Shown here: positions 9,537-64,000 of the stretch, in pieces | Position numbering within the stretch: the stretch's first letter is position 1 | Layout: each line of letters begins with the position of its first letter | Origin: Dictyostelium discoideum | Taxonomy: Eukaryota | DNA length: 64,000 nucleotides | Assembly: GCA_000004695.1 (NCBI GenBank) | Contig: CM000152.2 | Coordinates: forward strand, 5,056,001-5,120,000 | Reading direction: 5' to 3' | Notes under the pieces: model-generated | Database searches by the model: none | Told to the model about the DNA's origin: nothing | What the model saw: only the letters and a program-made list of their open reading frames with translations | Made by a program: the position numbers and the translations under genes

Positions 9537-12500
9537 TTATTTATAGAAAGTACTGAGTGAATTATTGTATTTTTTGAGATGTTTAGGAAGTTCTATTGCG
9601 TGAAGAGGTGAGTTCCATTGTCTGCTAAATTGTAATAGCTTTAGCGAGATTAGTGAGTCTAATTTATTTTGTTCTTCTGGCCGTTGCTTTGATTTGATTC
9701 TTAATGTTTTGTTTATAACCGCTTGTGTCCTGTCCCATGCAGCTCTTTGTGTTTTAATTAGTTCACGTATGACTTGTTGTCTGTGAATTATTATTTCTTT
9801 TTCATCGTGAATGAGTTTATTTCTTTTGTGCCAGATTTTATCGAATATAATAGCTATTAAATTGGCTACTAGTGCAATTTGTAGATGGTTTAAAATCTTC
9901 ACATTCCAGGTGTGAGTGGTGTGTCCACACTTAGTTAGGGTGTAGTTGAAGATTTCTTGTGTGTTTTTGATGTGGGCTTTGCAGTTGAAGAATATATGTT
10001 CTGAGGTCTCATCTTCCCCACACTGTTGGCATGGCATGTTGTATATTTTTGGTAGTGCTTTCAGTGTGTATCTCCATAATAGATCTCTACCTTTCATGTT
10101 TATTATTTTTTTGATTTCTTTAAATGGAAGGTGTTTGCTATTAATTTTGGTCATTATTTCTTTTTGGCCAGGAGTTGGTATGAATTTGTTGTGTTCAGGA
10201 GATTGAGTTGTCATCATATCTTCGTATATTTTTTTTAATTTTGGGAGGTGTTCGTAGTGTGTTTGTTTATTTTGTGGAGTTTTTAATTGGGTCCATGCTT
10301 GCTTGCATTGCCAGTGTAGTTGTAGTTGATTTTGTTTTGTTGTTGTTTTGTTGTTGTTGTTGTTTTTGAGTTCCTCTTCCCACAGTTTTATATATGAACT
10401 AGGAGTGTTACTTACTCTTTGGTGGAGGTATCTTTCGAATAACCATGCTTTCTGTGCTAGTTCTCTTGTCTTCAGGTTCCATAAGTTTAGGCCACCATTG
10501 ATATAGTTGTTTTGTCTTCTTTGTAGTGAAAGAGAGTTTTTAGATTTTGTGTTGAAAACGAATTTTACGATGTTATTTTCAATACTATTGTGTTGTGGTG
10601 TGGTGTTGATGTAAGTGTGGAACGTTAACTGAGATAGTGCATATGTTTTTGCCATTATGAGTCTGCCCATATAGGTTGATGAAGTTGAGTTCCATGTTAC
10701 TAGTTTAGCTCTGATGTTGTCTGAGATTGTATTGATTTTGGATTTGATACCCTTATTGTTGAAGTCAAAGCCGAGGTACCTTTCGTTTGATTTTATGACG
10801 GTGTATAGCGTTCTGGTGTTCCATTTGAAAGTGATACACGAGCATTTGGTTTGGTTTATTTTTGCGCTGGTTGCTTGGCAAAACTTCTTGATCCATTCAT
10901 TCATGAGGAAATGGTCCATAAAGTTGTATGCTATTGTTGCTGTATCATCGGCGAACTGTAGTATTTTAATGGTTTCTTTGGTTACACCATTGATGCAGCG
11001 GTCATTTATTATAGTAGTTGCCATGCATTCAACCACTAATGCGAAGATAGTGGGAGAGATAGGATCACCTTGTTTGGTTCCTCTTTTTGATGTAAAGCTT
11101 TTAGATAATGAGTTATTGATGTACACTGATGTTTCTGATTCATTGAGTAAGTTCATTATTGTGAGGACCATTTTGAGTGGTAGTTTTAGATGTGCAAGAG
11201 TACGTAGAATGGCGTTATGTGAGATTGAATCGAATGCTTTTTCAAAATCATAAAATGTTATGATTGGTTCCATATCCTCTTTTGTGTTAATCTCTCGTTT
11301 TATTATTTCTATTGTTGAGTTTAAGGTGATGATGTTATCGTGCAGTAGTCTTCTTGGTACGAATCCAGTTTGGAATGGTGAGATTATTTTGTTTAAGAAC
11401 TTCAGGATCCTATTGTTGATTATTTTCGAATAGATTTTGTAATCGACATTTAGAAGTGTTATTGGTCTATAATTATCCAGGTTGTTTGGGTCTCCTTTGT
11501 TTTTATATATAGTAATCAATATCCCTTGTTTGAAGTCCTTTGGGATTGTTGTGTTCCAGAAGTGATTGTATAGTTTTGATATTATTGGTAGAATTTCATT
11601 AATGTGGTTTTTGTAAAATGTTGGAAGGAGTCCATCTTTACCAGGTGCTTTTCCTTCTTGTATTTTTTCAATGCCTAGTCTGATTTCATATCCTTCTATT
11701 GGTTGATTAATTTCGTCCAATATCTTTTGATCAATCCTTTTATTGAATGTTTTTAGGAGTTCGTGGTGAGTGTCTTCGTTGCATTCTCTCTTCTGGTACA
11801 GGTTCTCGTAATATCTTCTTGCTACTTCGAGGATATCCTCGTGTTTTGTTACCAAACAATTGTTGCTTGGATCTAGAATTTGAGGGATTTCATTTGTCTT
11901 TCTTTGGACTTTTAACCTTCTGGTTAAGTATTTTGATGGTGTTTCTTTGTTGTTGATGTGGGTGTTGGTTTGGTTTGCTTGTTTTATTCTTACTTGTTCC
12001 TTTAGAATATTGTTGATCTCTTCTTTAAGGAAGATTGCTCTTGAATCTTTGGCTGTTTCGAGTTTTTCTGCGAGTTCTTTTAGTTTGTTTTTGGTTTTAT
12101 TGCTTTCTCTAATTTCTATATTAATTGACAGTTTCTTTATTTCATCTTTTAGTTTCAACCATTGTTCGCAAATGTTTAATTTGTACCATTTGCTGGTGTT
12201 CTCTTCGAATTTTTTATTGTAGTATTTAATTGTTTTATTAATTTTGAGGCTGGTTGAATTCATTTTGAGAGTTTCTAGGTTTTGTCTCCATAGTCTTTCT
12301 CCTTTCTTTTGTTGCTCGTATTCTGGTATTTTTAATTCAATGATTACCATGTTGTGATCAGATTTTAATTTGATTTCCTTAGTAGTAACTATTGGGTTTA
12401 GATGGAGTATCTTCTTTGAGACAAAGACCCTATCGATGGTTGATTTGTTTCTTGGAAATGTGATTCCATTCTTAATTTCTGTAAATTCGAATTCGTCGAA

Positions 12501-12758
12501 GATTGTTTTAATATATTTGTTAAGGTTATTATCCACTGAACAGTCTACATTGAAGTCTCCGGTTATAATATCGCTGTGTAGTATTTCTTCTGTGAGATTT
12601 TCCTTATACCATTCATGTCTTTCGTTTGACTTTGCTGGGGCATAAATGGTTGTGCATTTGATCTGTGTTTTTGCAATCATCCATTCGGAAGATATAATTC
12701 TTTCGTTTATTGTTTTTGTTGTTGTTTTTATTTGGGTGTTGATGATGATTTGTGACAC
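9537..12758 (-). CDS. Retrotransposon ORF2: apurinic-type endonuclease plus reverse transcriptase polyprotein (1073 aa from the first Met)
   Basis: EEP/APE motifs (ITGDFNVD...SDHNMVIIEL), RT motifs (LLNVDYKIYSKII; FYDFEKAFDSISH; KILQFADDTATIA), and a C-terminal CQQCGEDETSEHIFFNCKAH..HKRNKLIHDE zinc-knuckle-like region. Confidence 0.9.
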   Translation of the reverse strand: MSQIIINTQIKTTTKTINERIISSEWMIAKTQIKCTTIYAPAKSNERHEWYKENLTEEILHSDIITGDFNVDCSVDNNLNKYIKTIFDEFEFTEIKNGITFPRNKSTIDRVFVSKKILHLNPIVTTKEIKLKSDHNMVIIELKIPEYEQQKKGERLWRQNLETLKMNSTSLKINKTIKYYNKKFEENTSKWYKLNICEQWLKLKDEIKKLSINIEIRESNKTKNKLKELAEKLETAKDSRAIFLKEEINNILKEQVRIKQANQTNTHINNKETPSKYLTRRLKVQRKTNEIPQILDPSNNCLVTKHEDILEVARRYYENLYQKRECNEDTHHELLKTFNKRIDQKILDEINQPIEGYEIRLGIEKIQEGKAPGKDGLLPTFYKNHINEILPIISKLYNHFWNTTIPKDFKQGILITIYKNKGDPNNLDNYRPITLLNVDYKIYSKIINNRILKFLNKIISPFQTGFVPRRLLHDNIITLNSTIEIIKREINTKEDMEPIITFYDFEKAFDSISHNAILRTLAHLKLPLKMVLTIMNLLNESETSVYINNSLSKSFTSKRGTKQGDPISPTIFALVVECMATTIINDRCINGVTKETIKILQFADDTATIAYNFMDHFLMNEWIKKFCQATSAKINQTKCSCITFKWNTRTLYTVIKSNERYLGFDFNNKGIKSKINTISDNIRAKLVTWNSTSSTYMGRLIMAKTYALSQLTFHTYINTTPQHNSIENNIVKFVFNTKSKNSLSLQRRQNNYINGGLNLWNLKTRELAQKAWLFERYLHQRVSNTPSSYIKLWEEELKNNNNNKTTTKQNQLQLHWQCKQAWTQLKTPQNKQTHYEHLPKLKKIYEDMMTTQSPEHNKFIPTPGQKEIMTKINSKHLPFKEIKKIINMKGRDLLWRYTLKALPKIYNMPCQQCGEDETSEHIFFNCKAHIKNTQEIFNYTLTKCGHTTHTWNVKILNHLQIALVANLIAIIFDKIWHKRNKLIHDEKEIIIHRQQVIRELIKTQRAAWDRTQAVINKTLRIKSKQRPEEQNKLDSLISLKLLQFSRQWNSPLHAIELPKHLKKYNNSLSTFYK

Positions 12759-12970
12759 CCCTTGTCCTGTTTTATCAATTGGTGCGTGGTGTGTTATTTT
12801 GTTTTTATATTGTTGATTTATTGAGTAAATTTTATTTGTTTTTATATTTGTTTCAGTTAGAAGTGCTGCGTCCAGCTTGTTGTTGTCTAATACGGTGTTT
12901 ATTATGCTGGCAGATTGGATGGTGTTGGATCCTTGGACGTTCCAAACACCTATTCTTATTGTGTTTTTCT

Positions 12971-14305
12971 TTATAGTTTTATTTGGGGTAGATTTTTATC
13001 TACCTTTTGAAGTTTCTGGTTTATTTTGTCTTCTAACTGATCTTTACTTTGTTCGTTGTGTTGTTGGTCTTGTGTGTTTGTGGGGTTTTTTGATTTACTG
13101 ATTTGTTTTAGAATTTCCTTGTTGAAGTTGTCTATATCTTCATCCATTTTTGTTTTTATGCTTTTTTGTCCATATTCACCCAATTTTGGTTTGACTGGTG
13201 TTTTGTTGGTCCTGTTTGTTTTGTCTTGTTGTTTGTTTTTTGGTGTGTTTAACAATTTACTTGGTGAATCGATAATTTTCGATGGTGTACCATAGGTTGG
13301 GCTGAAACTCATGATATGTTTTATTGGAGAGGAGAAGAACCATTGATTTGAAGGGATTGAAAGTGGGAATTCTATTTTTCTTATTGCATCAGTGTTTGGG
13401 CTGGTGAAGTCGAAGATATCATTTACCTCTCTAAGTTTTTCTTCCGTTGTTAGTCTCTTTGTTTCGCCGTGTTGTTTTATTGGTGTATTGTATGGAGATG
13501 GTGGTTCAATAGGTTTTTCTGATTTTGTTTTAATTTCTTGATTTTTTATCGATTGGGTATTGATCTCATTCTCTATTCTTGTTAGTTCATCTACGTTTTC
13601 TAGTGATGCATCTATTACCTTTTGAGCTGTATCATCTAGGGCCATAAATGTTTTATCATTAGATGAGGAGGTGATTGGTGGGATAATGATTGTTCTTTTT
13701 CCTTGTTTTGGTATTTGTTCTGATGTAGATTTTGGTTGTTGTTCATCTGATTGTTTTTTATTTTTGTTTTCTTCTTGATTTTCTGGTAATGAGGTTTGAT
13801 CTCTCCATCCTTTGTTGGAGTGACCAATTAATGTTAGATTGTCTAGTTCAATGATAGTGTCATATTCTTCTACGACTCTTTTCACTGTTTTGATAATTAG
13901 AGTTTCGCCTTTAATTTCAGATTTAATTAGTTTACATCCTTCATTTTCTATTACCCATTCTATTTCTGTGAGTGATTTATACCAATCGAAATCCGTATAC
14001 ATATTTTTTGGTCTTAGAGTGGTTATAAATTGTCCTTTTAATTCTGCATCGAACATATTTACAAAATAGATTACTGTACTAATACTGTCTGTGAGAATTT
14101 TGAATGTATTATTACTTTTGATTAAAACATCTTTTTTGTCCAAACTTTTTTCTAAATCTTTTTTTATTTTATCGTCTGGTTCGTGATTGATGTTTATGAC
14201 GTATTTGAATTGTTTTTTTTTTAATTGAGTTTTATCCACAATTTCGCTTATTTTTTGTAGGCATTTGTGTTGCTTAATATTTGTGGTGTTGTTTGTGATT
14301 TTCAT
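12971..14305 (-). CDS. Retrotransposon ORF1 (444 aa, basic/K-rich, probably a nucleic-acid-binding protein)
   Basis: Intact ORF directly upstream of ORF2 on the same strand. Its N-terminus is duplicated in the neighbouring partial copy, which is typical LINE ORF1 placement. Confidence 0.8.
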   Translation of the reverse strand: MKITNNTTNIKQHKCLQKISEIVDKTQLKKKQFKYVININHEPDDKIKKDLEKSLDKKDVLIKSNNTFKILTDSISTVIYFVNMFDAELKGQFITTLRPKNMYTDFDWYKSLTEIEWVIENEGCKLIKSEIKGETLIIKTVKRVVEEYDTIIELDNLTLIGHSNKGWRDQTSLPENQEENKNKKQSDEQQPKSTSEQIPKQGKRTIIIPPITSSSNDKTFMALDDTAQKVIDASLENVDELTRIENEINTQSIKNQEIKTKSEKPIEPPSPYNTPIKQHGETKRLTTEEKLREVNDIFDFTSPNTDAIRKIEFPLSIPSNQWFFSSPIKHIMSFSPTYGTPSKIIDSPSKLLNTPKNKQQDKTNRTNKTPVKPKLGEYGQKSIKTKMDEDIDNFNKEILKQISKSKNPTNTQDQQHNEQSKDQLEDKINQKLQKVDKNLPQIKL

Positions 14306-14743: not shown

Positions 14744-14829
14744 GCCATAGTAGTCTAGTGGTAAGACATTTCTCTCGTATAAAATTATACAGCGAAGAAG
14801 GATCCCGTGTTCGATTCACGGCTTTGGCA
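14744..14829 (+). tRNA. tRNA gene, probably carrying a 15-nt intron. Anticodon loop CUCGUA gives anticodon CGU (tRNA-Thr?), so the isotype is tentative.
   Basis: Acceptor GCCATAG pairs with CTTTGGC (one T.T mismatch at 5:68). D-arm is GTCT-AGTGGTA-AGAC (A-box TAGTCTAGTGG). T-arm is CCGTG-TTCGATT-CACGG (B-box GTTCGATTC). Discriminator A at 14829 is followed by T6 (a pol III terminator). Anticodon stem TTTCT/AGAAG closes only if 14780-14794 (taaaattatacagcg) is removed as a 37/38 intron. Confidence 0.7.
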
Positions 14830-21969: not shown

Positions 21970-22461
21970 TTACTTACAATGTTCTCTAATATAAGTTAAC
22001 ATTGAAATACAAAAATAATCAATTAAAATTAAATTTTCACCATAAGCAAAAAGAGCATCCCAAATATTTAAAACATCATCAAAATGAAATTCTCTACCAA
22101 ATAATAAACGAATCCAACGTAGTAAATAAATTTGTGGTTCAATATCTAAGGAATCCAAGTGTTGATAAAGTTCAAAATCTTTTTGTTTTAATAAAATTGA
22201 GTGAATATATTTACATTTTAAAACAACATCATTACATTTTGATGATAATTCCTCTTCTTCATTATCCTGTACACTACTTGATGATGAAGATGCTACTGTT
22301 GGTGAATTACTACCTAATGGTGGTGGTGGTGGTGGTGATGGTGATGATGATGACGAAGGTGGTGGTGGTGAAACTGTTGATGATGAAGATGATGTTATTG
22401 TTGATGATGATGATGATGTTGATGTTGATGATGATACTGTTGTTGCAGCTGCTGTTGTTGT

Positions 22462-22496
<35 letters not shown>

Positions 22497-24139
22497 AAGT
22501 TGTTGTATTATTATTATTTGTATTATTTGAATTATTTGAATTATTAGTTTGTTGAGTTGGTGCAGGAGCATACCAATCTGAAGTAAATTTCATTAACCTT
22601 TCAAAGATAGCAAAAGTATCATGTTCTAAATATTTAATATTATAAATGAAATCAACTAAAGTTGAAGATGAATTTTCATCCAATTTCTTATAGCTACTAT
22701 ACTCTTGATTGTATAAATAAATGATTGGTGCCAATAATTCATGCATACCTTGTCTATAAGAGATGATACCATTGGTTTTTGAATAAACAAATAAAATGGT
22801 TGCCATCATTTCCCTAATAACTGGATTTGAAAAGAAATCATTATCTGGATGAGTTCTCTCTAAATCAATTTTAATAATTTTTTGTGTATCTAAATTTTTA
22901 AAGAATTTATTCCATGGTGACTTTTATTTTTTTGAAAAAAAAAAAAACAAAAAACAAAATTAGTAAAAAAAAAAAAAAAAAAAAAAAAAAGATATTTTTA
23001 TATATATATAAAACATACATCGTCATTTTGAGATAATGGATCATATGTTGAATTTGAATTTCTTGGGTCAAAACAATGTTCTTCTTTTAATTTTTCATAT
23101 CTTTTTCTTTGTTGAGTAATATCTCTTTCCCATTTATCAACTCTATTAATATCTAATCCACCTAAAAATAACTAAAGTTTTTAAAAAAAAAAAAAAAAAA
23201 ATTGTTAATGAGTAAAAAAAAAAAAAAAAAAAAAACAACAAATAATTAATGAATTAAGTTATATACCTTCCAAGCAATACCTCTCAATGGTGAATATTTT
23301 AAAGCACCAGTGAATGCATTCATTTTTAAAATTTCTAAAGGTTTTTTTTCTAATGGAATGGTTGAAAAGAAGATTTTATTGAATTCAGATTGTAGTGGTG
23401 AAATTAAAGGTTCTTCTTGTTTTTCATGAATCTCTTGCTCAATTGTACCAACTGTTGTTGTGGATATAATATGTTCATCTTTTGATGCAGTTGTTACTCC
23501 CATTGAAAAACTATTATTCATATCTTTATTTGTTGTTGTTGTTGTTGTATTTTCATTACTATTACCATTATTATTATTATCAATTTCATTATTATTATTA
23601 TTATTATTATTATTTATTATTGATACAATTGGTGTGAATATTTCATGAACTACATTTTCTTTTTTAATTTGTTCATCTTGGTCACTGTCACTATCATCTA
23701 CTTTTGTATTAATGTTAACTTCTAATGGATTTACTACAATTGGTTCACTATTGATCAATGTGGATGTTGGTGTAGTAGTTGTAGTTGGTACTGCAGTAGT
23801 TGCAGTGGTTGTTGTAGTAGTTGTAACTGTATTTTCTTTAGTTACACTTATTGGTTGAGATGGTATAATTTCTTCTTGTTGTTGTTGTTGTTGTTGTTGT
23901 TGTTGAGTAGAAGTTGATGCTTCAATTGGTATTGGAGGTATTGATGATGAAATTAAAGGACTATTTGCGGCCTCTGTACCAAAAATAGATTCTACTGCTG
24001 CATCAACTTTCTTTTCTTTAGTTGGTATTGTATCAAATATTGATGACATTATATCATTTGATGTTGTGACACTATTTCTTATATTTGGTGTTGTTGTACC
24101 TGAATTTATATCTAAATCTAAAAATCCACTGGTATCCAT
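20786..24139 (-). CDS. TBC-domain Rab GTPase-activating protein, 4 exons: join(24139..23266,23171..23039,22920..21978,21867..20786)
   Basis: N-terminal low-complexity T/Q/N region, then TBC motifs across exons: ...SPLRGIAWK|LFLGGLDINRVDKWERD...LSQNDD|SPWNKFFKNLDTQKIIKIDLERTHPDNDFF (the IxxDxxRT arginine finger) ...YRQGMHELLAPIIYL (the YxQ glutamine finger) ...LRWIRLLFGREFHFDDVLNIWDALF...IREH|LLKSDSIYALKRIYKYPPV.... Donors GTATAT/GTATGT/GTAAGT with AG acceptors. Long poly-N, poly-S and poly-T tracts lie in exons 1, 3 and 4. Confidence 0.8.
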
Positions 24140-27935: not shown

Positions 27936-30073
27936 TTATTTTATTATTATAAAATAATTTTTAGGTTGCAATTAAATTTATAAAAAATAATAAATTATCA
28001 GGAAAACAAAAAGAAACATGTTTTAGAGAAATTGATATTATGAAATTATTAGATCATCCAAATATAGTGAAATTATTAGATGTTGTTGATAAAAGAGAAG
28101 AAGAAGGTACAACTTATTTAATAGTTGAATATGTATCAGGTGGTGAATTATTTGATTATATAGTTGCACGTGAATATATTAAAGAGAAAGAAGCAAGAAA
28201 ATTTTTTAGACAAATGATATCGGCCATAGAGTATTGTCATGCAAATTTAATAGTTCATAGGGATTTAAAACCCGAGAATTTATTATTAGACTCAAATGGT
28301 GATATTAAAATCTCGGATTTCGGATTGAGTAATAATATTCAACCTGGTAAGCTATTGGAGTCATTTTGTGGCTCACCATTGTATGCAGCACCAGAGATAT
28401 TGAAAGCAGAGAAATATTTAGGACCACCCGTTGACATTTGGAGCTTAGGCGTTATCATGTACGCCGTGCTCTGTGGCAACTTGCCATGGGAGGGCGACTC
28501 GCAGGCAGAGATCTCGTTCAATTCAGTGCATGGTAATTACGAAGATCCCACCCATTTATCGGCAGAGGCAGTTCACATTCTACGAAGAATGATTGTACCA
28601 AATCCAAAAGATAGAGCAACGATTCAAGAACTTAAAAATCATCCATGGACCAATATTGATTATCAAGAGATTCCAAAATCTCATTTACCACCAAGAGATG
28701 CGGTTCATGAGATTAAGGAAGACATTTTCGCTCATTTAATTTCACTTGGTTTTCCAAATACAAAAGAAACTCGTGATATAATATTAAAGAATGAAAATTG
28801 TGGTATTGTAAATGTTTATCATTTACTATTGGATAGATATGCTTCTAAAGAAGTTGAAAATTTAAAATCAAAATTAGAATTACTCTCAAAAAGAAAGAAA
28901 TCTTTCTCTGATAAAAGAAATCCTTCAACAAATTCTTTAGCTTCAATTCCAGAAGATTCAAATGATTTATCTTCTAATAATAATAATAATCAACAACAAC
29001 AAAATTCACCACCTTCTAAAACTAATTCCTCTTCCACTTCTTCATCAAATAGAGAATCAAATAATAATTCTCCTTCTCAAGGTTCAATAAAAGAAATTAG
29101 TTTAGATGAGTTGGATAATCATATAGAACAATTGGATAATGATATTGAAAATTCTGATAATAATAAATCATCTTCACTTACAAGAAGATCTTCTGATCCA
29201 AATAAAGATATTGAAAATTCTTTAAAAGCTCAAGGTTTATTTTCAAGTTATTCTGCACCTGGTGTACCAAATTCTGATCATAATTATGATTTTGAAACTT
29301 ATCAACAACAACAACAATATCAACAACAACTACACCAACAACAACTACAACTACAACAACAATATCAATCACAAATACAATCCGATATATCATTCCCACA
29401 TGATGATGTTGAAATTGAAAGTTATTCAATTCAACAGCAACAACTACAACAACAACAACAACAACAACAAGAACAACACAAAGAAGATAATAATAAACCA
29501 AATACAAATTTAAGAAGAAATTCAATTGCAGTTTCAACATTTATGGAAGATGAACCAAATGAAATGCCAATTAATAATTTGTATAAAATGAATGAACAAA
29601 TTCAACAACAACCAATTATTGGTGGTAGTGGTAATGTAATGAGATCACAATTTAATCAAACATTACCAACAATTGATCAACAACCAGTTATTGAAGCACC
29701 AAAAACGAGAAGAATGAGTTTAGATTCACGTATGTTAAATGGTGATCAACAATCATTGGTTGAAAAGAATCAACATATGGCAAGTCCAAGAACTTCGAAA
29801 GGTATATTTAAATCTTCAACTACCACTACTAAATCACCAGAGAAAACAATTATCGAATTGAAAAGATCTCTCGAAGAAAGTGGTTTATTCACTAAAAAGA
29901 AAGGTCCTTACCTTTTCTTATGTTTTGATGAAGATAACTCTGTTAAATTTCAAATCGAAATCGTTAAAATTTGTAACCTTGATTTAACTGGTATTCAATT
30001 AAAAAGATTAAGTGGCGATACTTGGAAATATAAAGATATTTGTACTGAATTAGTTGAATCAATGAAATTATAA
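27659..30073 (+). CDS. MARK/Par-1-type AMPK-related Ser/Thr kinase with UBA-like and C-terminal KA1 domains, 2 exons: join(27659..27871,27965..30073)
   Basis: Exon 1 carries the glycine loop (LGNGTFGKVKLGTNICTKEN). Exon 2 starts VAIKFI (the conserved Lys) and continues [35 protein letters not shown] and DIWSLGVIMY. The UBA-like stretch is IKEDIFAHLISLGFPNTKETRDIILKNENCGIVNVYHLLLDR, the spacer is Q/N/S-rich, and the KA1 tail reads KGPYLFLCFDEDNSVKFQIEIVKICNLDLTGIQLKRLSGDTWKYKDICTELVESMKL*. GTAAAT donor at 27872, TTTTTAG acceptor at 27964. Probably one of the mrk genes. Confidence 0.88.
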
Positions 30074-35807: not shown

Positions 35808-35808
<1 letters not shown>

Positions 35809-37614
35809 TAATCACTATCATCTTTAAAATTTGCCATTGGATCATCAGATCTTTTTCTTTTTAAATTATAAGCTTCCATTTGTTCCTCTGATACATTATA
35901 ATCATCAGCAGATAATGAATTATATTTAATATTTCTTTCATCTTTTTCAACTGATTTCTTATTTTCTTCATCTTGATCTTTTAATGCTTTTTTTAATTTT
36001 TCTTCTTTTTCTTTTCTTTCTTTTTTATCTTTTCTTTTTCCTTCTTTTTTATTATGTTTATCATTATCTTCATTTGATTTATTTAAATGTTGTTCTAATA
36101 ATGAGGTTGTGGTGGTAGTAGTTGTAGTTGTAGTATTATTATCGTCATCATCTTGTTGATTTTCTTGTTGTATATGATGTTGTTGTTGTTGTTGTAATTG
36201 TTTTTCACGTAATAATTTACCTTTTTCACCTGTACAATAAGCATTTTTAATTAATTGTCTGCAACAAGCGAAACCCCATTGACCATTTTCCCAATATGAA
36301 CCCCAAATTGATTTATGATTATTTAAAAATACATCCTCTTCATATTTTGATTTTACAATTTTCTCTTCACCCTTGATTAATTTACCAGAGGAACTGTATT
36401 CGGTGTAAATTTCCGATTGTGGTACTTTATCGATTTCCTCCTGTTTCAAGAGATGTTCTTCACCACCATATTTAGTTAAAAGTTGATTTCTAGTTTGTTG
36501 TTTTAATTGTTCTTTCTTTCTAAGGAAATCGGCATGTAAGAGGGCAGCTTGTGATGGTGCACTAGAGATATCGACATCTTGACCCTTTTCTTGTGCTTCC
36601 CAAGCGAATCTTTGTAAATCTCTAAACTCTTTAGTCTCACCACTTGTACGTGCAAAATTATCACCAGCAAATTTAATATCGTTTGGATTTGCATTAGGTA
36701 ATGGGTTATCTCTCATTGAACGACTCTTTGGTTCGTAGAATGCAGAGTTTACATCTAAATTATACAAATATTTTGCAGTATCTTCACGAATTCTAAGATT
36801 TCTAATTGTGGTTCTTGACTTTTGATCTAATTTTTGTATTGGTGCAACGGTTTCACTATCATATGATCCCTCCTTCTCCTCATTATCCATCAATTCTTTT
36901 GATAATGTTTCATCAACATCAGGTGTCTTTTTATCACCACCACCACCATGTTGTTTAATTAATTCTTGTAGTTTCTTTTTCTTTCTTTCTGTATCTGCTT
37001 TTTCATAGATATCCATCACCTCTTTGTATGAGGATGGGTCGTAACCATTGTATGGATCACGTTTACTATCATAATCCAATTCTAACTTTTGAATGACCTC
37101 ATCTGGTTTTATATCATCATTTGTAAATTTTGCACCCAACTTTCTTGGACGCTCACAACAATCTTTGGTTTTATGAGTCATTGCACCACAATTTTCACAT
37201 GCACCTTTTCTGAATTTGGTTGCTGCTTCACCAGTGGTTGCACCTCTTAAATACCATCCTTTATCCATCTCCTTCTTTGTAACACCACGTTGATGTTTTA
37301 AACTTGGTTTATTTGCATTTAAATACCATGGTGCTTTAAGAATATACTCTGGAATATGTGGATTAATCTCTTTACCCTCTTCATCTAACTCTGCTGGTGC
37401 ATTACCAGCTTTTCTTGCTTCATCTAATTCTTTCTCTTTCTTATACTCATCTCTTGTTTTTCTATGACCTTTTTTTTAAAAGAATAATAATAATGTTAAA
37501 ATCTTTTTTTTAATAATATAAAAAAACAAAAAGAATAAAAAAAAAAAATAATAATTTATTATATTATTATATAATAAATTAATTAAATAAATACTTACTT
37601 ATTGACGATGCCAT
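35808..37614 (-). CDS. slu7: Pre-mRNA splicing factor SLU7 homolog, 2 exons: join(37614..37599,37468..35808)
   Basis: MASSI|SHRKTRDEYKKEKELDEARKAGNAPAELDEEGKEINPHIPEYILKAPWYLNANKPSLKHQRG...FRKGACENCGAMTHKTKDCCERPRK (the SLU7 CX2CX4HX4C zinc knuckle) ...RNLRIREDTAKYLYNLDVNSAFYEPKSRSMRDNP...WGSYWENGQWGFACC...NLKRKRSDDPMANF, collinear with human and yeast SLU7. The tiny first exon ends in a GTAAGT donor, and the acceptor is ...AAAAAAG at 37469. Confidence 0.88.
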
Positions 37615-52422: not shown

Positions 52423-53952
52423 TTAAACAACTAAATCGGCATATCTTTTATCATTGATTGCAGCTTCCATTAAATCCTTTGGAGTGATGGAAGAGGATTC
52501 ACCAGTTTCAATGACAGCTTTTAAGATTGATGGTGAGAAACCAGAGATTAAACCAACACCTTCAGTTTTTGAAGAGTCAGTAACACCACATTGAGAGTTA
52601 CCATTTACATTCCAGTAAATGAGTTGTGGTGGGACGTAACCAGCATCTTTGTATTGATCAATCATAGCATCATGGTTGGATTTCTTTGAGTATTTTCCAT
52701 CGGCAGTATCAAAAGCCATATCAGAGATTACGAATAATTTCTTTGGCATATCTTCTTGTGGCAATTTATTTTGTTTGGCTTTTTCCAAGATCATCTCGAA
52801 AGCACGGTTAAAGTTTGTTGAACCACCCCAAGGAGCAGCAGCTAAATTTGAAACTTTATCACGTAAAGAATCACCTGTGACCTTGTGGAAAGTTGGTGTT
52901 TCATGGAAAGTGATAACTAAATCTTTGAATGGTGGTGCGACAACTGATGAAATCAAGATACCGAGTGCAATTGAAACTTCCATTGGTGTACCACTCATAC
53001 TACCAGAGACATCACTGAGGACGAGAGCATCCTTGAGGGAACCTAATTTTCTAACTTCTTGTTCCAATACTTTCCATTGCTCTTCGAGGATGTCATCCTT
53101 TGCAATACCTTTGAGATATTCCTTAACGATCTCGTGTGGGAACAATTGTTTAGCGTTTACTTTGGTTTCACCCTTCTTTAAGGATTCGATATATTCAGCG
53201 AATAAACTTGGTTCATGACGTTCGAAAGCTTTACGTTGTAATTTCATACAACGTGATGGTACCTTTGAGTAACTAATTTCATTCCATTGGTTGGCAGACA
53301 TTTTACGTTCTACAACATCGAGATGTTTTCTTAATGGTACTAAATAATTCTTTCTATAGTCTTTCTTGGCGGTGGATTTATTGGCAGAAAGTAAGAGGGC
53401 AATCTTTTTACAGGCTTTTGATGAGGTTGGATCAGAGTGACCTTCAGTTGGTGCCCATTTTGCAGCTAATGAAATCTTGGCCTTCTCTTGATCCTTTGAT
53501 AAACTTTCAACATCTTTTTTCAATTGGGTGGTAATTGACTCCAATGCTAATGGCTCAACGGTGGTACCAATTAATTGGACGACATCTTTCCATGATCCAA
53601 ATTCTGGTACATGTTTAAAGTTTTTCTCAACAGTGCTTGGTGATACACCATTCATCCATACCAAACTTTGTTGGAAAAGGGTACGTTCACCTTTACCACC
53701 ACGACAATCACGTAATTGGAATACTAATTTCAAGGTATCCAATGGTGATACTTCCCAAGATGCTTGTAAAAGTTGATTCAATTCTCCTTGTTCTAAACCA
53801 CGTGCTGACTTGAAGAAAAAGTTAACTCTTGCGTCATCTGTACCTGCTGGTGTATTTACATGTTTTGGGAATACTTTTGCTACTTTAGTTTTCTTGTTTG
53901 GACCATGTTTATATTTTTTACCCAATGATTTTGATGAAGCTGATGATGACAT
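52423..53952 (-). CDS. DUF2828-type protein with a C-terminal von Willebrand factor A (vWA/MIDAS) domain, single exon, 509 aa
   Basis: Starts MSSSASSKSLGKKYKHGP... The MIDAS motif is ALVLSDVSGSMSGTPMEVSIALGIL..., followed by GGSTNFNRAFE. Composition is noticeably less AT-biased than the neighbours, with no homopolymer tracts. The ORF-track start at 54057 is an upstream artefact across a poly(T/A) run; the first sensible ATG is at 53952. Confidence 0.8.
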   Translation of the reverse strand: MSSSASSKSLGKKYKHGPNKKTKVAKVFPKHVNTPAGTDDARVNFFFKSARGLEQGELNQLLQASWEVSPLDTLKLVFQLRDCRGGKGERTLFQQSLVWMNGVSPSTVEKNFKHVPEFGSWKDVVQLIGTTVEPLALESITTQLKKDVESLSKDQEKAKISLAAKWAPTEGHSDPTSSKACKKIALLLSANKSTAKKDYRKNYLVPLRKHLDVVERKMSANQWNEISYSKVPSRCMKLQRKAFERHEPSLFAEYIESLKKGETKVNAKQLFPHEIVKEYLKGIAKDDILEEQWKVLEQEVRKLGSLKDALVLSDVSGSMSGTPMEVSIALGILISSVVAPPFKDLVITFHETPTFHKVTGDSLRDKVSNLAAAPWGGSTNFNRAFEMILEKAKQNKLPQEDMPKKLFVISDMAFDTADGKYSKKSNHDAMIDQYKDAGYVPPQLIYWNVNGNSQCGVTDSSKTEGVGLISGFSPSILKAVIETGESSSITPKDLMEAAINDKRYADLVV

Positions 53953-54360
53953 TTTATAAATTGTTTTTAAAAAAAAAAAAAAAAAAAAAAATTTGTTTGT
54001 GTGTGAAAAAAAAAAAAATAAAATAAAATAATTGAAAAAAAAACTGAAAGATAGCAAATTGAAAAAAAAAAAATTAAAAAAATCTTTAAGTACATTTTTT
54101 TTTTTTTTTCAAATCGGATTAAAAATGAGAAAAAAAATCGAATCAATGGTGGTTCGTTGAATTAATTTTTTTTTGAATTTTTATTTTTATTAATTTTTTA
54201 TTTTTTTTTTTTTATTTATTTTTGTTAAAATTAAAATAATAATTTATAGAGATTGTTTATCTCTTTCTTGTTTATTTTATCAAAATAATAACTTTTTTTT
54301 TTTTTTTTTTTTTTTATTTATTTTCTCAAAATTAATTAATTATCCAAAAAAAGTTATTTG

Positions 54361-56757: not shown

Positions 56758-59700
56758 TTAATTTTTAAAACCACCAACTAAGATTGCTTTACATTGTTTT
56801 GCTCTTTCTAAGAAAAGAGAAGATTCATTTGGAAAACCTCTTTCAATTAAAAAGTTTGCATAAGCGGTTAAACAACGATAATTATTTGAATCAGCTTCAA
56901 GAGAACGAAGGAAATAATCTTCAGCTTTTTCATAACGTTCACAACGAACTAAAAAGTTTGCATAAAAGAAGAGAATGAGGGGACCTTTAGTATCGGCATC
57001 GATAGCACGTAAGAAATAACGATCAGTATTTACCACGACACGATCAGACATTGAAAATCTAACATTGGACATATTTTTACCTTGACTTGCACTAAATTCC
57101 AAAATTTTACACCAAGCTTGAGCACATAGTTGTAAGGTTTCCTTATTGTTTGGATTTGAAATTAATGCCAATTCAAAGAATTTTCTAGCTTTATGTAATA
57201 AATGAATGGCGGTACCAATTGAACGTTCAGTCATTGCTTTAGCATAAAAGAAGGTACCTTCAGCATTTGTAACCAAATCAGTATGTTTAACACGTACACC
57301 AATCTTTTTCAAATCACTAGTATCGAATGGTTGATAATGATTCCAAAGATTTGATTGAGTATCGGCCACTTTTTCAATGGTTTTCTTTCTAAATTTCAAA
57401 TGAGTCATATCTCTGAATCTAGTGAACAATAAATGACGACCAATCACTGGATCATAATTGTTACCCTCTAGTTTCTCATAGAGAATTTCTTGAAGTTTCC
57501 AACCATTTGTACTTGCTTGTTGTTGAGCTTGTTGTTGAGCTTGTTGTTGTTGTTGAGTTTGAGTTGATTGAATAGTTGGTGATGCTGGAGCCAATGGATA
57601 TTGAGTTGATTTTCTAATACCACCATCTTTTGACGATGGTGTTGTCGGATATCCACTACCACTATTATTTAAATTACCATTTCCATTGGTTGTTAAATCT
57701 AAAACATTATCACTACTTGTATTTGTACCTAAACTACCACTACTACCATTCTGTTGTTGTTGTTGTTTATGCATCGTTAAAACCGTTGGAATATTAATAA
57801 TATAGAATTTTGAAGCCAATTCATTCTTTACTGTTACATTCCAAAATTCATTAGTATCGAAATCTGTCAATGTTGAAATACCAAAAACCATATTTAAGAA
57901 TTTAGTTGTCAAATCAATATAAGGTGCTGATAAGGGTTGATTATAACGTTTCATTGCACTTCTTAATCTTCTACGTAAATCATTTTTAAGTACTCTTGCA
58001 ATGGCTTCGATGAGTAGTACAAAGCAAGCATCTCTATCATCCATAATCACCAACATATGACCTATCCAACGCATATTAATACCTTGTCTATGGAATTGTT
58101 CTGGAATATGAACATCACCAGTCAACAAAGTACCATTGTTTAGTGATTCTTTAATCATCCACTTTAGACGAACTGATAGACGTGGAATTAACTCTGTTAA
58201 CAATCTATTGGAAGCTTCTTTTACCTCTTGATTATGAATCAATCTATCTTTATCATTCTTTATAAAACCACTGAATGCATCGGAGCATAATGGTTTTGGA
58301 TGATTCTTTAGGAACTCTGGTCTAAACAATTGGAATAAATGACCACCTGGTACATTTTCATCTGGATAAGTTGGTGGAAAGGTACGAGAGAAATCTATTA
58401 AATAAAATCTACCATCGGTACCGATATGACCTTCGATATCTGTGGCGGAATAAAGTAGAGTGGGTGGAACTGATGTACCACCTAAATGAGGTTTCAAATT
58501 TAACATTTGTGATAATGAATGCATAATTGGTAATGCTTTTTCATTTGCATGAACTGTTTTACCCATATCACTTGAACCATAGACGATAGTTGATTTTTCA
58601 CCACTTGAAATGATTGGTAAGTAGCTCATTGCAATCAAACGGAAACCCATAAAATCTACTAAAGCCATCAAAGGTACACAAAGACCACCGATTGGACAAT
58701 TTAAAGTTGCCATACAACCTTTTAATTCTTGACCACCAACTTTTGCTCCACCCCATTCATCATAAACATTTGAACTTCCAGAGAATTTAAAGAGTACATT
58801 TCTTACAATATATTTATCACCACCTAAATGACCACCAATTGAACGACTTTGAATGGTTTTCTCTTTTAAATAACGTTCTTCAATGATAATTCTACCATAG
58901 GTTTTGACAGTATGTATAAAATCTTGAGAAATATGTAATAAATCTGTACAAATCTCTTGTAAGCGATAAAGATTTGTATCCAATGATGGAAATTCTCTAA
59001 ATCTAAGTACAACTTTTTGAAATCTTTCATTCAAATCTGATTCATCATCTAATTTAGATTCATCATCATCATCTTCTTGTTTATTTTTTCTTTGATTTGT
59101 TGGTGATGATGAATTTGGTGTTAAATTTCTATTGCTATTGCTATTGCTATTATTGGATTGTTTATTTTGTTGAATTTCATATGGATCAATATTATCTGGT
59201 TGTTGTAATAGTTTATCACTACTGTTTGATTTTATATCATCTCTTAATGGTTGAGAAGTTTGTTTATTATTACTACTATTTACACTTGTTATAAAATTAC
59301 TTTCAGCTCTATTTAAAACCCTATCACCACGAGACGGTGATTGAATTGAGAAAGTGGATGTTGATCTATGAATTGTTTGCTGTCTAGATTCTTCATTCTC
59401 TGAATCGTACTCTGATAAATCATCTCTATCATAACCAGAAATAATCGATTCAGTATCATATGGATTTTGATTATTTTGATTTGGTGAATTTGGATTATCT
59501 ACAGCTGAAAATATTGCCATTGAATTTGATGATAATGACATTCCAGTCTTTGCTACACTATTAATATTTAAAAATCCATGTTGTTCACCAACTACACTTG
59601 TATTCATATTAGCTCTATTTAATGTAAAATTATTAACAATTGCTATTGGTTTAGTAGTTCCATTATTATTATTATTATTATTGTTATTATTATTAATATT

Positions 59701-59842
59701 ATTATTAATATTATTATTATTGTTATTATTATTATTTTCATTCATATTATTTAAAAATGCATTTAATTGAGAATTTAATGTTGATGCTGTCACTGTTCGA
59801 GTTAATGTTGGTGGTGGTTCAACAATTGTTACATTGTTATCA

Positions 59843-59907
<65 letters not shown>

Positions 59908-61448
59908 TTTATTATCATCATCATCATTATTATTATTATTTTCATTATTATTAATATTATTAATAATATTATTATTGTTATTATTATTATTGTTGTTTTG
60001 ATTATTACTAATGGTTATATTTGATTGCATTATACCACCTAAAACTACACTATTACCACGATTAATTGGATCTCTTGAAGTTGGAAATGCTTTATTAAAA
60101 CCAATTCCATTCGTATTGTTTATAATATTATTATTATTATTACTATTATTATCAATTGGTTGTATAGTTGTAGAATTAACAATAGAAGAAGGTGTTGGAG
60201 GAGGTGGTTCTCTTGGTAATGCACTTGAATGTCTTAAACTACTTTTAGAAGCAATACTTGGTAATACTTCCAATGTATTACGATGCCAATTTTTTTGTTC
60301 GTCTTCAGAAGGTTGAAAGCCATAGGCCTGATTATAGGCATTGTCATAATCAACCTCTGGTGATGGTGACGATGATATCTTTATTGGTGGTTGTTGTCTG
60401 AGTTGATCTTGTTGAGATTGCGTTGGTGGTGGTGGTGGTACAGGTGTTATAAATGATGGTGTTGATATTATAACTGGTGATCTATTAAGTTGTTGTTGCT
60501 GTTGCTGTTGCTGTTGTTGCTGTAGTTGTTGCTGTAGGTCATATTGATGTTGTTGAGCTTGGGCTTGAGCCAATTGCTGAGCCAATTGTTGAGCCTGAGC
60601 CTGTTGTTGTTGAAGATTTAAAGCATTTACATAGTTATGTAAATTATTTATATTAGTACTACTATTTAAATTGAATGGTTGATTTACAGATAAGGAGGAA
60701 GAGGTTGGAGTTTGTGGTGGTTGTAATTGATTATTGTTATTATTATTATTGCTATTATTATTATTCGTTGATGATACAGTTGATGTTGTGGTTGTGGTTG
60801 TAGTTGTAGTTGTTATGGATATAGTATTTATATTTGTGCTACTACCATCAAGGGTTGGTGAAGTTGAAGTTGTATTTAAACTATTTGCAACTTCATTTGA
60901 ACAAACCCTATAATAATTGATTCTTCCATTTGAATCTTTAAACGGAGGTCTTGATGGGAATGGTACACTAAGAATTTGATGTCTTCTTCTTTTGAAATTT
61001 TCTTCGGTCGTTGTTGGTGTATTACCAATGCTACTACCACTACTACCCATACCATTATTAAAAAACCCACTATCCTTTATACTCGTGGTACCATTGTTAC
61101 CATTATTATTTGGTAAAAATGATGAATTTAAATTTATTGGTAAAATATTTTTTGGTGATGTCACACCTTTTGCATTTTCTTTCTCCTTTTCTTTTTCTCT
61201 TTCTTTTTCTTTCTCTTTCTCTTTTTCTTTTTCTTTTTCTTTTTCTTTATCTTTTTCTTTATCGCCTGAATTTTTTAAATTTTTAAATACACCTTTCTTT
61301 TTAATTGATCCATTACTATCATTTTTATCATTTTTATTGTTACCGCTGTTATTATTATTATTGTTATTCATGTTATTATTATTATTATTACTACTGTTAT
61401 TATCAGTATTGATATTATTATTATTAATATTATTATTACTACTACTAC

Positions 61449-61529
<81 letters not shown>

Positions 61530-61538
61530 TAATGCTAC

Positions 61539-61605
<67 letters not shown>

Positions 61606-61672
61606 GTTGTTATTATTAATGCTATTAGTGTTATTATTATTATTATTACTATTATTATTATTGTTATTGTTA

Positions 61673-61748
<76 letters not shown>

Positions 61749-62171
61749 TATTATTATTATTTATATTGTTACCGCTATTATTACTATTTATACCGCTCGT
61801 ACTATTTTCGTTTATATTAATATTATTATTATTAATAATATTATTATTATTCGTATTATTCGTATTATTATTATTATTTATATTTATATTATTGTTAACA
61901 TTATTATTATTAATGCTATTAGAATTATTAGAATTATTATTTACACTCGAATTACTTGAAGTTAATAGATTACTGCCGCTACTAGTTGATGATACACTAT
62001 TAACACTACTAGCTAAACCACTATTACTATTTACACTCAAGCTATTGCTATCTTGTTCTCTTAAGCCATTACTGCTTAATAGTTGATCCCTATTCGAACC
62101 ACCACTTATACTTCCACTAAATATATAATGATTACTAGAATTTAATGGTTGTAAAGATGGTGATGATGAAC

Positions 62172-62223
<52 letters not shown>

Positions 62224-63163
62224 GCTATTGTTATTATTATTATTATTATTATTATTGCTATTGCTATTACTTGAAGATGAAGAAAAAAATTTATTAAAAA
62301 GACCTTTTTCTTTCTTTTTTGGATCCTTTTCTTTCTCTTTCTCCTTTTCTTTTTCTTTTTCTTTCTCTTTTTCCTTTTCTTTTTCTTTACCTATATTATT
62401 GCTATTGATTAAATTCATACCACTACCACTACCAAAACTACCACTATGATCTCTTTTAGAAGATCTTGCAGATGGTGATGATACTGACATAGTTGTAGTA
62501 CTATTTGTTGATGACGACGATGATGATGTGATTGTTGGTGTTATTGAATTATTACCAACCAAACCAAACTGGTGTGGTGTAATAATCATTTTTGCAATTG
62601 TAAGGAATATTAAATCTATATTTTCATTTCTTAATGCTGAACATTCAATACCAATAAACTTATTTAATAAACAAAAACTTCTAACCATTTCTGGTGGAGT
62701 CTTTTTCTCTAAATCTGATTTACATCCAACAACTAATATAGGTGTATTTACTGGTACATATCTTTTGGCCTCTATTGACCATTTTGATGTTATCTTTTCA
62801 AATGATTCTCTATTTGATGAATCATAAACAATAATTAATCCTTGTGCTCCTCTTAAAAAAAAAAAAAAAAAATTAATTAACATTTTTATAATATTTTTAA
62901 AATAAAAAATTTAAGCTTACTTGTAAAAACTTGATGTTAAATTTGATATTTTCTCTTGCCCAAATGTATCCCCCTATAATTAAAAAATAAAAAAAAAATA
63001 AAAAGTTAAAAAAATGACTTAATTATAGTTATAATTTTATTTTTTTACATACAATTTGAAGTTTATGTGATTTACCAGCAACTTCTACTGATTTAAATTT
63101 CTAAAATAAAAAATTAAATAAAAAAAAAAAAAAAAATAAAGTTAATTTCTTATTTAAAATAAA

Positions 63164-63223
<60 letters not shown>

Positions 63224-63385
63224 TATAATTATAATTATAATTATAATTGTACATACGGCTTCAAGAAGTACAGTTGGTTCATTTGGATTAAAAACACCAT
63301 CAGTGAACCTTAATAATAATGATGTCTTACCAACGCCATTATCACCGATAATCAATATTTTTAAACTTTTGTCTAGTTGTTGCAT
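56758..63385 (-). CDS. Giant multidomain protein: N-terminal Ras/Rab-like small GTPase, ~1000-aa poly-N/S/Q linker, conserved central domain resembling the CLU (clustered-mitochondria) central domain, and C-terminal TPR-like repeats. 4 exons: join(63385..63257,63100..63053,62973..62921,62852..56758).
   Basis: G1 is KILIIGDNGVGKTSLLLRF (exon 1, gtatgt donor). Exon 2 is KFKSVEVAGKSHKLQI. G3 is GDTFGQE (exon 3, donor gtaagc). Exon 4 starts (K)GAQGLIIVYDSSNRESFEKITSKW...VVGCKSDL (G4) ...ECSALRNENID. Conserved central block: ...KYIVRNVLFKFSGSSNVYDEWGGAKVGGQELKGCMATLNCPIGGLCVPLMALVDFMGFRLIAMSYLPI...GSSDMGKTVH...IGTDGRFYLIDFSRTFPPTYPD. The tail has TPR-like helices (FYANFLVRCERYEKAEDYFLRSLEADSNNYRCLTAYANFLIERG). 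The CLU assignment is from memory only. Confidence 0.75.
61380..61790. repeat. Long (ATT/AAT)n tracts encoding poly-Asn within the giant GTPase gene
   Basis: Several runs of 20-40 perfect triplets (61440-61760 and again 59820-59900, 62160-62260), translated as N-runs of 25-45 residues on the minus strand. Confidence 0.9.
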
Positions 63386-64000
63386 TGATTATTAGCTGAT
63401 GTTGGTTAATGAATATTATTTATTTATTTATTTATTTAATTATTTAATTTATTTATTAATTAATTTATTATTACAATTTGTTGGTTTTTTTTTTTTTTTT
63501 TTTTTATTTTTTTTTTATAAACTTATTTTATTATGTATGATAGTATTATTTATTATTGTTGGTGGCTGTTGTTGTTGTTGTTGTTGTTGTTATTGTGGTT
63601 TGTGTGATTATAATGTTTTTTGATAAAAGTAAAAAAAAAAAAAGAGAAAAAAAAAAATAAAAAATAAAAAATAAAAAATAAAATTTATTATTTTTTTTAT
63701 TTAAAAAAATAAAATAAAATTAAAACAATTTTGAATGTGTGTGTGGTTTGGGGGTTGGAAATTACTATATGCTTTCTTTTTTAAGTTTATTTTTTTATTT
63801 TCTTTTTTTGATTATCTTTTTTGAGATAAAGGGATTAATTAAATTATTATTATTACACTTTTAATTTTATAATACTACAATAAAAATTTTATATTTATAT
63901 ATATATAGTGCGGAGTAAGGAATATATTAAATATAATATTAAATAAATTACTAATGAAGTGTGTTATTTTATTATTATTATTATTACTTTGTTTTTATTT

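Follow-up and report, generated by a model that had tools for sequence, protein, structure and literature searches.

Within a 64,000-nucleotide stretch of Dictyostelium discoideum DNA (positions 5,056,001 to 5,120,000 of contig CM000152.2; hereafter the window), a single minus-strand gene encodes a protein of 2107 amino acids (aa) that joins a Rab-like GTPase domain (G domain) to a CLU domain and tetratricopeptide repeats (TPRs). The gene is very probably comB. We read its product as a comB-type signalling protein that combines a Rab switch with a putative nucleotide-binding, probably atypical kinase-like CLU domain. For this joint reading we consider the scales evenly balanced. The Rab plus Clu architecture itself is already known from the literature and from genome annotation, and we claim no new kind of system. 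What is apparently new is the contrast between motif-bearing CLU domains of the ComB/Cld type and the degenerate canonical CLU domain.

The original prediction had placed a Ras/Rab-like GTPase, a CLU-like domain and TPRs in one protein of ~2100 aa, and this holds. Pfam matches Ras (1.4e-38), CLU (1e-50) and TPR profiles (above their cut-offs) in the 2107-aa protein, and the motifs quoted at the time are all present (GDNGVGKT, DTFGQE, GCKSD, GGAKVGGQELKGC at aa 1444-1456 and IGTDGRFYLIDFSRTFPP at aa 1553-1570). The gene runs from a start ATG at 63385 to a stop codon at 56758-56760. Its four exons are separated by introns that are all GT..AG. They splice to a coding sequence of 6324 nt without an internal stop.

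56758..63385, minus strand: complete gene from start to stop codon; 4 exons coding for 2107 aa; very probably comB
63257..63385, minus strand: exon 1, aa 1-43; contains G1/P-loop GDNGVGKT and switch I
63053..63100, minus strand: exon 2, aa 44-59; interswitch strands KFKSVEVAGKSHKLQI; gapless alignment to orthologues
62921..62973, minus strand: exon 3, aa 60-77; G3/switch II GDTFGQE
56758..62851, minus strand: exon 4, aa 77-2107 plus stop; G4/G5 at its start, then CLU and TPR

The G domain thus spans four exons and not the three tiny ones first proposed: G1 lies in exon 1, G3 in exon 3 and G4/G5 in exon 4. Intron 1 consists for the most part of an (ATT)n/(ATAATT)n microsatellite (63160-63245). 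In the 5' flank, positions 63520-63700 are almost pure A/T homopolymer runs, as is usual in the intergenic DNA of Dictyostelium.

A gene of this shape could be an artefact of the gene model, in which the GTPase exons form a separate small upstream Rab gene that has been wrongly joined to a CLU-TPR gene. The three short 5' exons with their AT-rich introns were joined by eye, and neither the exact 2107-aa protein nor the product of its 2041-codon open reading frame (ORF) was found in a collection of 15 billion proteins. However, this ORF (56758..62883, minus strand) is continuous, and CLU and TPR share it with the part of the GTPase that holds G4 and G5 (positions 71-160 of the Ras profile, which match inside exon 4). 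Hence the fusion is not an artefact of splicing or annotation. Exons 1-3 as a stand-alone gene would encode a truncated, non-functional GTPase. Furthermore, the exon junctions of the spliced N-terminus align without indels to intact dictyostelid orthologues, which supports the gene model, and the layout of an N-terminal Ras and a C-terminal CLU domain is repeated in three dictyostelid orthologues and four distant proteins. We leave the artefact barely any chance at all.

A search of other Amoebozoa for the same fusion had been suggested, and the fusion does occur there. With aa 1340-2107 as the query, HMMER found 4177 relatives, and the top ones are orthologues with 74-82% identity (Tieghemostelium lacteum 82%). 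Three dictyostelid orthologues carry an N-terminal G domain, with Ras and CLU (and eIF3_p135/TPR) recognised by Pfam: those of T. lacteum (KYQ93681.1, 1723 aa, annotated as a 'Rab GTPase domain-containing protein'), Synstelium polycarpum (1402 aa) and Acytostelium subglobosum (1543 aa). To judge from these proteins, the Rab-CLU-TPR arrangement is conserved across Dictyostelia. The suggestion that the fusion might be specific to the lineage fares less well: besides the three other dictyostelids, there are four far more distant proteins with Ras and CLU domains by Pfam. These come from a marine transcriptome cluster (P0207), from one JGI sample (P0120 and P0182) and from an ENA metagenome (P0012); in some of them G3 has decayed. 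JGI sample 3300082556 holds two separate Ras+CLU genes (L002:1715-1945 plus L002:2001-5360, and L003:276-4625). In one of the two, the first 76 Ras residues are called as a separate gene just upstream, suggesting an intron inside the G domain there too.

The module behind the G domain occurs with other partners. Among 40 other long relatives surveyed with Pfam, it stands behind C2 (5), DEP (2), PH (2), SAM (2), RCC1, Mob1, SPRY and globin domains. The Rab-like fusion is therefore one case of a pattern, seen in protists, in which a variable input, sensor or targeting domain is attached to a constant CLU-TPR module. The best 150 relatives that were scanned all belong to the short CLU-TPR subfamily, and none is recognisably a canonical CLU protein.

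The remaining parts of the protein are arranged as follows.

62584..63361 (introns within span), minus strand: Rab-like G domain, aa 9-166; Pfam Ras, PDB matches, TIGR00231
59065..62535, minus strand: low-complexity linker, aa 183-1339; poly-N/S/T/Q and EK repeats
60889..61020, minus strand: linker island, aa 688-731, ENFKRRRHQILSVPFPSRPPFKDSNGRINYYRV...; seen as blastp high-scoring segment pairs, common to all three dictyostelid orthologues
58360..59028, minus strand: CLU domain (PF13236), aa 1352-1574; protein-kinase-like fold (predicted)
57754..58245, minus strand: post-CLU all-helical region, aa 1613-1776; eIF3_p135-like, helical in the AlphaFold2 (AF2) model
57559..57735, minus strand: species-specific disordered insert, aa 1783-1841; predicted local distance difference test (pLDDT) < 50 in AF2
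56761..57501, minus strand: C-terminal conserved block, aa 1861-2107; small alpha/beta unit, then TPR-like repeats at aa ~1935-2106

It had been asked whether the G domain is of the Rab, Roc or Rag type. By its sequence matches it is Rab-type, not Roc or Rag: the top 60 sequence matches in the PDB are without exception Rab/Ypt/Sec4 proteins (Ypt1 at 7.6e-33, Rab1, Sec4, Rab10, Rab11, Rab18, Rab2). The Pfam Ras match covers aa 9-166 with 132.5 bits, and TIGR00231 (small_GTP) matches at 8.8e-22. Roc (5.7e-23, 82 bits) and Arf match as well, far below Ras. The P-loop has the form GxxxxGK[ST] (GDNGVGKT, aa 14-21) and G3 the form DxxGQ (DTFGQE, aa 61-66), with the catalytic Gln present in all four dictyostelid orthologues. 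Switch II departs from the Rab consensus WDTAGQE by W to G and A to F. The Ala position holds F, S, L or C among the four orthologues, and the Trp preceding DTxGQE (aa 60, 62971-62973) is replaced by Gly in D. discoideum alone. G4 departs from NKxD: in GCKSD (aa 119-123) the Asn is replaced by Cys, and the Lys and the guanine-specifying Asp are retained. The same Cys is present in T. lacteum, S. polycarpum and A. subglobosum (CKSD/CKCD in 4/4 dictyostelids), which makes it a trait of the family rather than an error. G5 reads ECSAL. The motifs for binding phosphate and Mg are intact.

The RabF1-F5 motifs that Pereira-Leal and Seabra reportedly described in 2000 are IGVDF, KLQIW, RFrsiT, YYRGA and LVYDIT. 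Compared by eye with this consensus in an alignment to Ypt1, the counterparts in the G domain are LLEAKF (poor), KLQIG (4/5), KISNLT (poor), FYKGA (3/5) and IVYDSS (partial). The motifs are thus partly kept, and the domain is Rab-like rather than a standard Rab. It lacks a prenylation tail, since it is N-terminal and the protein ends in GGFKN: ~1900 residues follow the G domain, and the terminus (...ILVGGFKN) contains none of the C-terminal Cys motifs CC, CxC or CCxx. We read the domain as a Rab-like nucleotide switch that would be unable to anchor to membranes by the usual route.

The spacer between the GTPase and the conserved block was first put at ~1 kb. It is much longer, at about 1160 residues or about 3.5 kb of DNA (aa 183-1339), and Pfam finds no domain in it, including COR, CLU_N and GSKIP. 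In aa 78-1339 (1262 residues) Pfam finds only the C-terminal half of Ras. A second island at aa 913-950 is common to T. lacteum only, and the rest of the linker is unalignable among the dictyostelid orthologues. The island at aa 688-731 may be a motif for docking or regulation. A 364-aa poly-Leu/Phe ORF on the opposite strand (60992-62086, plus) arises where the poly-Asn tract of the linker (AAT/AAC repeats) is read in antisense, and is not a gene.

The central block is CLU-like, as predicted: the Pfam CLU match is full-length (profile positions 1-222/225) with 173.1 bits against a cut-off of 24. In the helical region that follows, eIF3_p135 (PF12807) stays below threshold with 19.8 bits against a cut-off of 22; the same profile does pass its cut-off in the distant fusions and in the proteins of S. 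polycarpum and A. subglobosum. The TPR-like helices predicted at the C-terminus are recognised by TPR_17 (27.4 bits, cut-off 24.4) and TPR_14 (25.7 bits, cut-off 23.5). Foldseek matches the last ~160 residues to consensus TPR proteins (CTPR), MamA, PEX5 and OGT, with TM-scores up to 0.89 to the consensus TPR proteins. By blastp, the C-terminal block is 90.65% identical to that of T. lacteum.

A candidate active site emerges from the comparison of 127 members of the subfamily that are only 30-45% identical. Invariant or nearly so among them are GGxxGGxK, K1432, K1447, E1452, D1476, R1481, D1548-x-E1550-G-H1552, D1556, Y1560 and D1563-F-S-R1566. These residues lie in four segments and, for the pair D1476 and R1481, between them.

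58813..58836, minus strand: Gly-rich loop GGHLGGDK, aa 1416-1423; GGxxGGxK in the subfamily, not in canonical CLU
58780..58797, minus strand: strand VLFKFS with K1432; candidate beta3 Lys (F-K-F)
58714..58758, minus strand: helix EWGGAKVGGQELKGC with K1447 and E1452; E1452 is the candidate alphaC glutamate
58372..58449, minus strand: SATDIEGHIGTDGRFYLIDFSRTFPP, aa 1545-1570, with D1548, E1550, H1552, D1556, Y1560 and D1563-F-S-R1566; candidate catalytic and metal-binding segment

All 20 key residues are retained in 99 of the 127 relatives, and the protein of the window retains every one. The K1432 position is Lys in 124/127 relatives and Ser in canonical CLU. Where residues are lost, they are lost together. 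The clade P0007/P0099/P0106 has jointly lost the Gly loop, K1423, K1432, E1550/H1552 and D1563. P0137 has independently lost the Gly loop with K1423, E1550 and D1563 and retains K1432. D1476 and R1481 co-vary as a pair of their own. Such joint loss, seen in no fewer than two independent lineages, is what a single functional pocket would lead one to expect, and scattered structural residues would not. Joint conservation and joint loss suggest that this candidate pocket is functional, either nucleotide-binding or catalytic. P0007, P0099, P0106 and P0137 are natural 'pseudo' versions of the CLU-TPR module.

The fold predicted for this region is kinase-like. AF2 modelled aa 1340-1776 from a 40-sequence alignment with a mean pLDDT of 91. 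For the whole 768-aa C-terminal module it gave a pLDDT of 85 and a predicted TM-score (pTM) of 0.84, with disorder only in the insert at aa 1783-1841. Foldseek with the whole module returned the Toxoplasma proteins CGP/PCR10, then TPR proteins. In a separate structural comparison, the matches below the top ones are almost all protein kinases (HopBF1 7.8, PR-1G kinase 7.5, PknB 7.2, OspG 7.1), and further ones include RIO, Bud32, JAK, aminoglycoside kinases and alpha-kinases. In the model the CLU core thus appears bilobal and protein-kinase-like, and the key residues would sit at the positions of the kinase Gly loop, beta3 Lys, alphaC Glu, catalytic and DFG residues. Schaeffer et al. (2023, PMC10041065) likewise classed the central domain of human CLUH as protein-kinase-like and closest to HopBF1; there the likeness is detected by structure only, and the catalytic residues are altered. 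Hence, of the resemblance to atypical kinases that had been proposed, the kinase-like fold stands in the model. The specific families do not: actin-fragmin kinase (AFK), alpha-kinase and PI3K-like assignments were rejected, as none of them gives a Pfam profile match. Compared with the minimal kinases HopBF1, OspG, RIO and Bud32, to which CLU has no detectable sequence similarity, the CLU core has an additional helical hairpin at its N-terminus and is extended by a large helical region at its C-terminus, and any catalytic equivalence is putative.

The name comB comes from the literature. ComB was reportedly found in a screen for intercellular-communication mutants, to judge by the title of a paper by Kibler et al. 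in 2003 (Dev Biol 259:193). A predicted Rab GTPase with a Clu domain in the same organism shows no known difference from the 2107-aa protein, and we saw no sign of a second D. discoideum gene that fits this description. The fusion is already on record: Sugden et al. (2010, PMC2906285) attribute a Clu domain to 'ComB, a predicted Rab GTPase'. The same work shows that CldA (SH2, Clu and TPR) and CldB bind the adaptor LrrB, and that cldA- has the same gene-expression defect as the loss of LrrB (PMC2906285). Both are signalling adaptors with an effect on growth-stage gene expression. They share with our protein the Clu domain and long simple-sequence spacers, and CldA also has C-terminal TPRs. By description they differ in that CldA has an SH2 domain in place of the Rab-like domain, whereas CldB has no other recognised domain.

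We propose the following mechanism for ComB. The ~1160-aa disordered linker ties the G domain in cis to the compact CLU-helical-TPR module. The Rab-like domain would act as a GTP/GDP switch that positions or gates this CLU-TPR output module, comparable to the control of the kinase by Roc in ROCO proteins. Nucleotide binding is proposed for the CLU core because the Gly loop, Lys, Glu, D-x-E-G-H and D-F-S-R are retained in a kinase-like fold. The core is predicted to bind nucleotide through the conserved pocket, with a putative, probably atypical kinase-like activity (phosphoryl- or nucleotidyl-transfer), and the TPRs may recruit partners or substrates. The likely output, by analogy with CldA/CldB, is signalling with an effect on gene expression during development. 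Canonical CLU/CLUH would in that case represent a degenerate, non-catalytic branch.

Two known kinds of protein offer rival readings of this architecture. The CLU-helical-TPR module is a unit also found in CluA/CLUH, CldA/CldB and the Toxoplasma conoid proteins CGP/PCR10. Canonical CLU proteins (CluA, Clu1/TIF31, Clueless, CLUH, FRIENDLY) carry CLU, eIF3_p135-type helices and C-terminal TPRs in the same order as the 2107-aa protein, whose eIF3_p135 match is weak. It might thus be a divergent CluA/CLUH orthologue that acts in mitochondrial distribution or mRNA binding. However, canonical CLU has an N-terminal CLU_N and GSKIP and no GTPase, whereas the 2107-aa protein has the reverse: CLU_N (PF15044) and GSKIP/DUF727 (PF05303) have no match in aa 1-182 or aa 78-1339. 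The CLU cores also differ systematically at the key positions. Against a canonical CLU(H) set fetched with a CLUH segment (matches 60-94% identical to that segment), D1476, R1481, D1556, Y1560, D1563 and R1566 are common to canonical animal CLU and our protein. The canonical animal proteins have no Gly loop, and they carry S for K1432, F/H/Y for K1447, K for E1550 and I for H1552. Canonical CluA orthology was rejected for the missing CLU_N/GSKIP and the differing core residues. A divergent orthologue is further opposed by the best 150 relatives, which fall in the short subfamily, and by the presence of a separate cluA in D. discoideum, reportedly found in 1997. A related lrrB- mutant showed no mitochondrial clustering (PMC2906285). 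We grant this reading only a slight chance. The chance is very slight that the protein is instead a ROCO-type protein (Roc GTPase, COR and kinase) in disguise. Pfam Roc does match the G domain, and a GTPase stands in cis with a kinase-like fold. Yet Ras outscores Roc by 132 to 82 bits, the closest structures are Rabs, and no kinase (Pkinase) is matched. ROCO membership was rejected for the lack of COR (Pfam, aa 183-1339). What our protein and ROCO/LRRK2 share is a small GTPase, a kinase-fold domain and repeat domains in one polypeptide. They differ in COR, in a G domain of Rab rather than Roc type, and in CLU instead of a eukaryotic protein kinase. LRRK2 therefore offers a functional analogy for intramolecular GTPase control, and the proposed GTPase-CLU coupling would be analogous to Roc-kinase coupling, not homologous with it.

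The serious rival to a nucleotide-binding ComB is a non-catalytic scaffold. Here CLU-TPR would only bind proteins or RNA, the polar residues would be structural or form a site for a non-nucleotide ligand, and the Rab-like domain would target the scaffold. We lean against this role but consider it well within reach. Several observations favour it or weigh otherwise against a kinase-like ComB. The nearest solved relatives, CGP and PCR10, are structural components at the core of the preconoidal P2 ring (PMC12819142), and CLUH is described as an mRNA-binding protein (PMC4210445). A scaffolding role is thus well precedented. The two Toxoplasma gondii proteins (CGP, TGME49_240380, 4956 aa; PCR10, TGME49_298010, 2322 aa; PDB 9ya0) are much larger and have no GTPase domain. 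Their identity is only 16-18%, and the sequence profile detects only their helical part. No kinase family is among the Pfam matches of the 2107-aa protein. An alignment-based PDB profile search is dominated by TPR proteins, with CGP and PCR10 matched through the helical part and no kinase seen. Aligned by hhalign with PKA, CDK2 and ERK2, the CLU core profile reached a probability of 0.2%, too low to inform the mapping of residues. Past the hinge, the C-lobe of the CLU core has more beta strands than classical kinases. The kinase mapping of K1432, E1452, D1548 and D1563 is drawn from secondary-structure order only. Binding of nucleotide or effectors by the G domain could be weakened by the CKSD form of G4 and by the Gly that replaces Trp ahead of DTFGQE. 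The assignment to comB, though very probable, rests on a single sentence of PMC2906285. Against the scaffold, the subfamily conserves at 30-45% identity precisely what CLUH lacks (GGxxGGxK, FKF, E, DxEGH and DFSR), and these residues decay jointly in at least two independent lineages.

The nucleotide-binding reading can be carried one step further. The ComB/Cld-type CLU domain may be the competent ancestral form of a protist-wide [input]-CLU-TPR enzyme family, putatively kinase- or nucleotidyl-transferase-like. CLU/CLUH and the Toxoplasma conoid proteins would then be pseudo-enzyme descendants, and ComB would be gated in cis by a Rab-like GTPase, independently of the Roc-kinase logic of LRRK2. 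We offer this broader scenario tentatively and consider it unlikely as a whole.

The rest of the window contains several recognisable elements.

2584-3840, plus strand: Na+/H+ exchanger fragment, near the start of the window
9537-14305, minus strand: non-LTR retrotransposon
14744-14829, plus strand: tRNA-Thr(CGU), with the retrotransposon just upstream of it
21970-22809, minus strand: RabGAP-TBC ORF (6.8e-23)
28040-30073, plus strand: protein kinase with C-terminal KA1 (MARK/Par-1 type)
35808-37268, minus strand: Slu7 pre-mRNA splicing factor
52423-54057, minus strand: DUF2828 and DUF7788 protein, just downstream of the Rab-CLU gene

The retrotransposon and the tRNA-Thr(CGU) are a classic tRNA-targeted TRE5 arrangement. 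DDB_G0281943 matches the 444-aa ORF of the element (12971-14305) exactly, and at >=90% identity this ORF shares a cluster with DDB_G0293690, labelled TRE5-A ORF1 in a paper; its 1073-aa ORF (9537-12758) contains a reverse-transcriptase domain. The RabGAP-TBC ORF lies ~35 kb from the Rab-like gene, which is probably a coincidence. The kinase match at 28040-30073 starts at profile position 52, and therefore at least one upstream exon lies outside the ORF. The Slu7 ORF falls in the cluster of DDB_G0281901 (Q54TA0, 558 aa) and, like the 444-aa ORF, was matched exactly. Both matches are to proteins of D. discoideum strain AX4, and the window is therefore AX4 DNA. The annotated protein is longer than the ORF, and thus at least one more 5' exon exists.

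The value of these results lies in the comparison on the CLU domain, in which a non-canonical subfamily keeps co-evolving kinase-type residues that are lost in CLUH. The biochemistry of the CLU domain has long been unclear, and the contrast between motif-bearing and degenerate versions makes it directly testable. If the nucleotide site works, ComB, CldA and CldB would be a tractable entry to the ancestral biochemistry of the CLU family. They would also provide a context for the role of CLUH/Clueless in mitochondrial biogenesis. With ComB there would then be a second, independent protein in which a small GTPase is coupled in cis to a domain of kinase fold.

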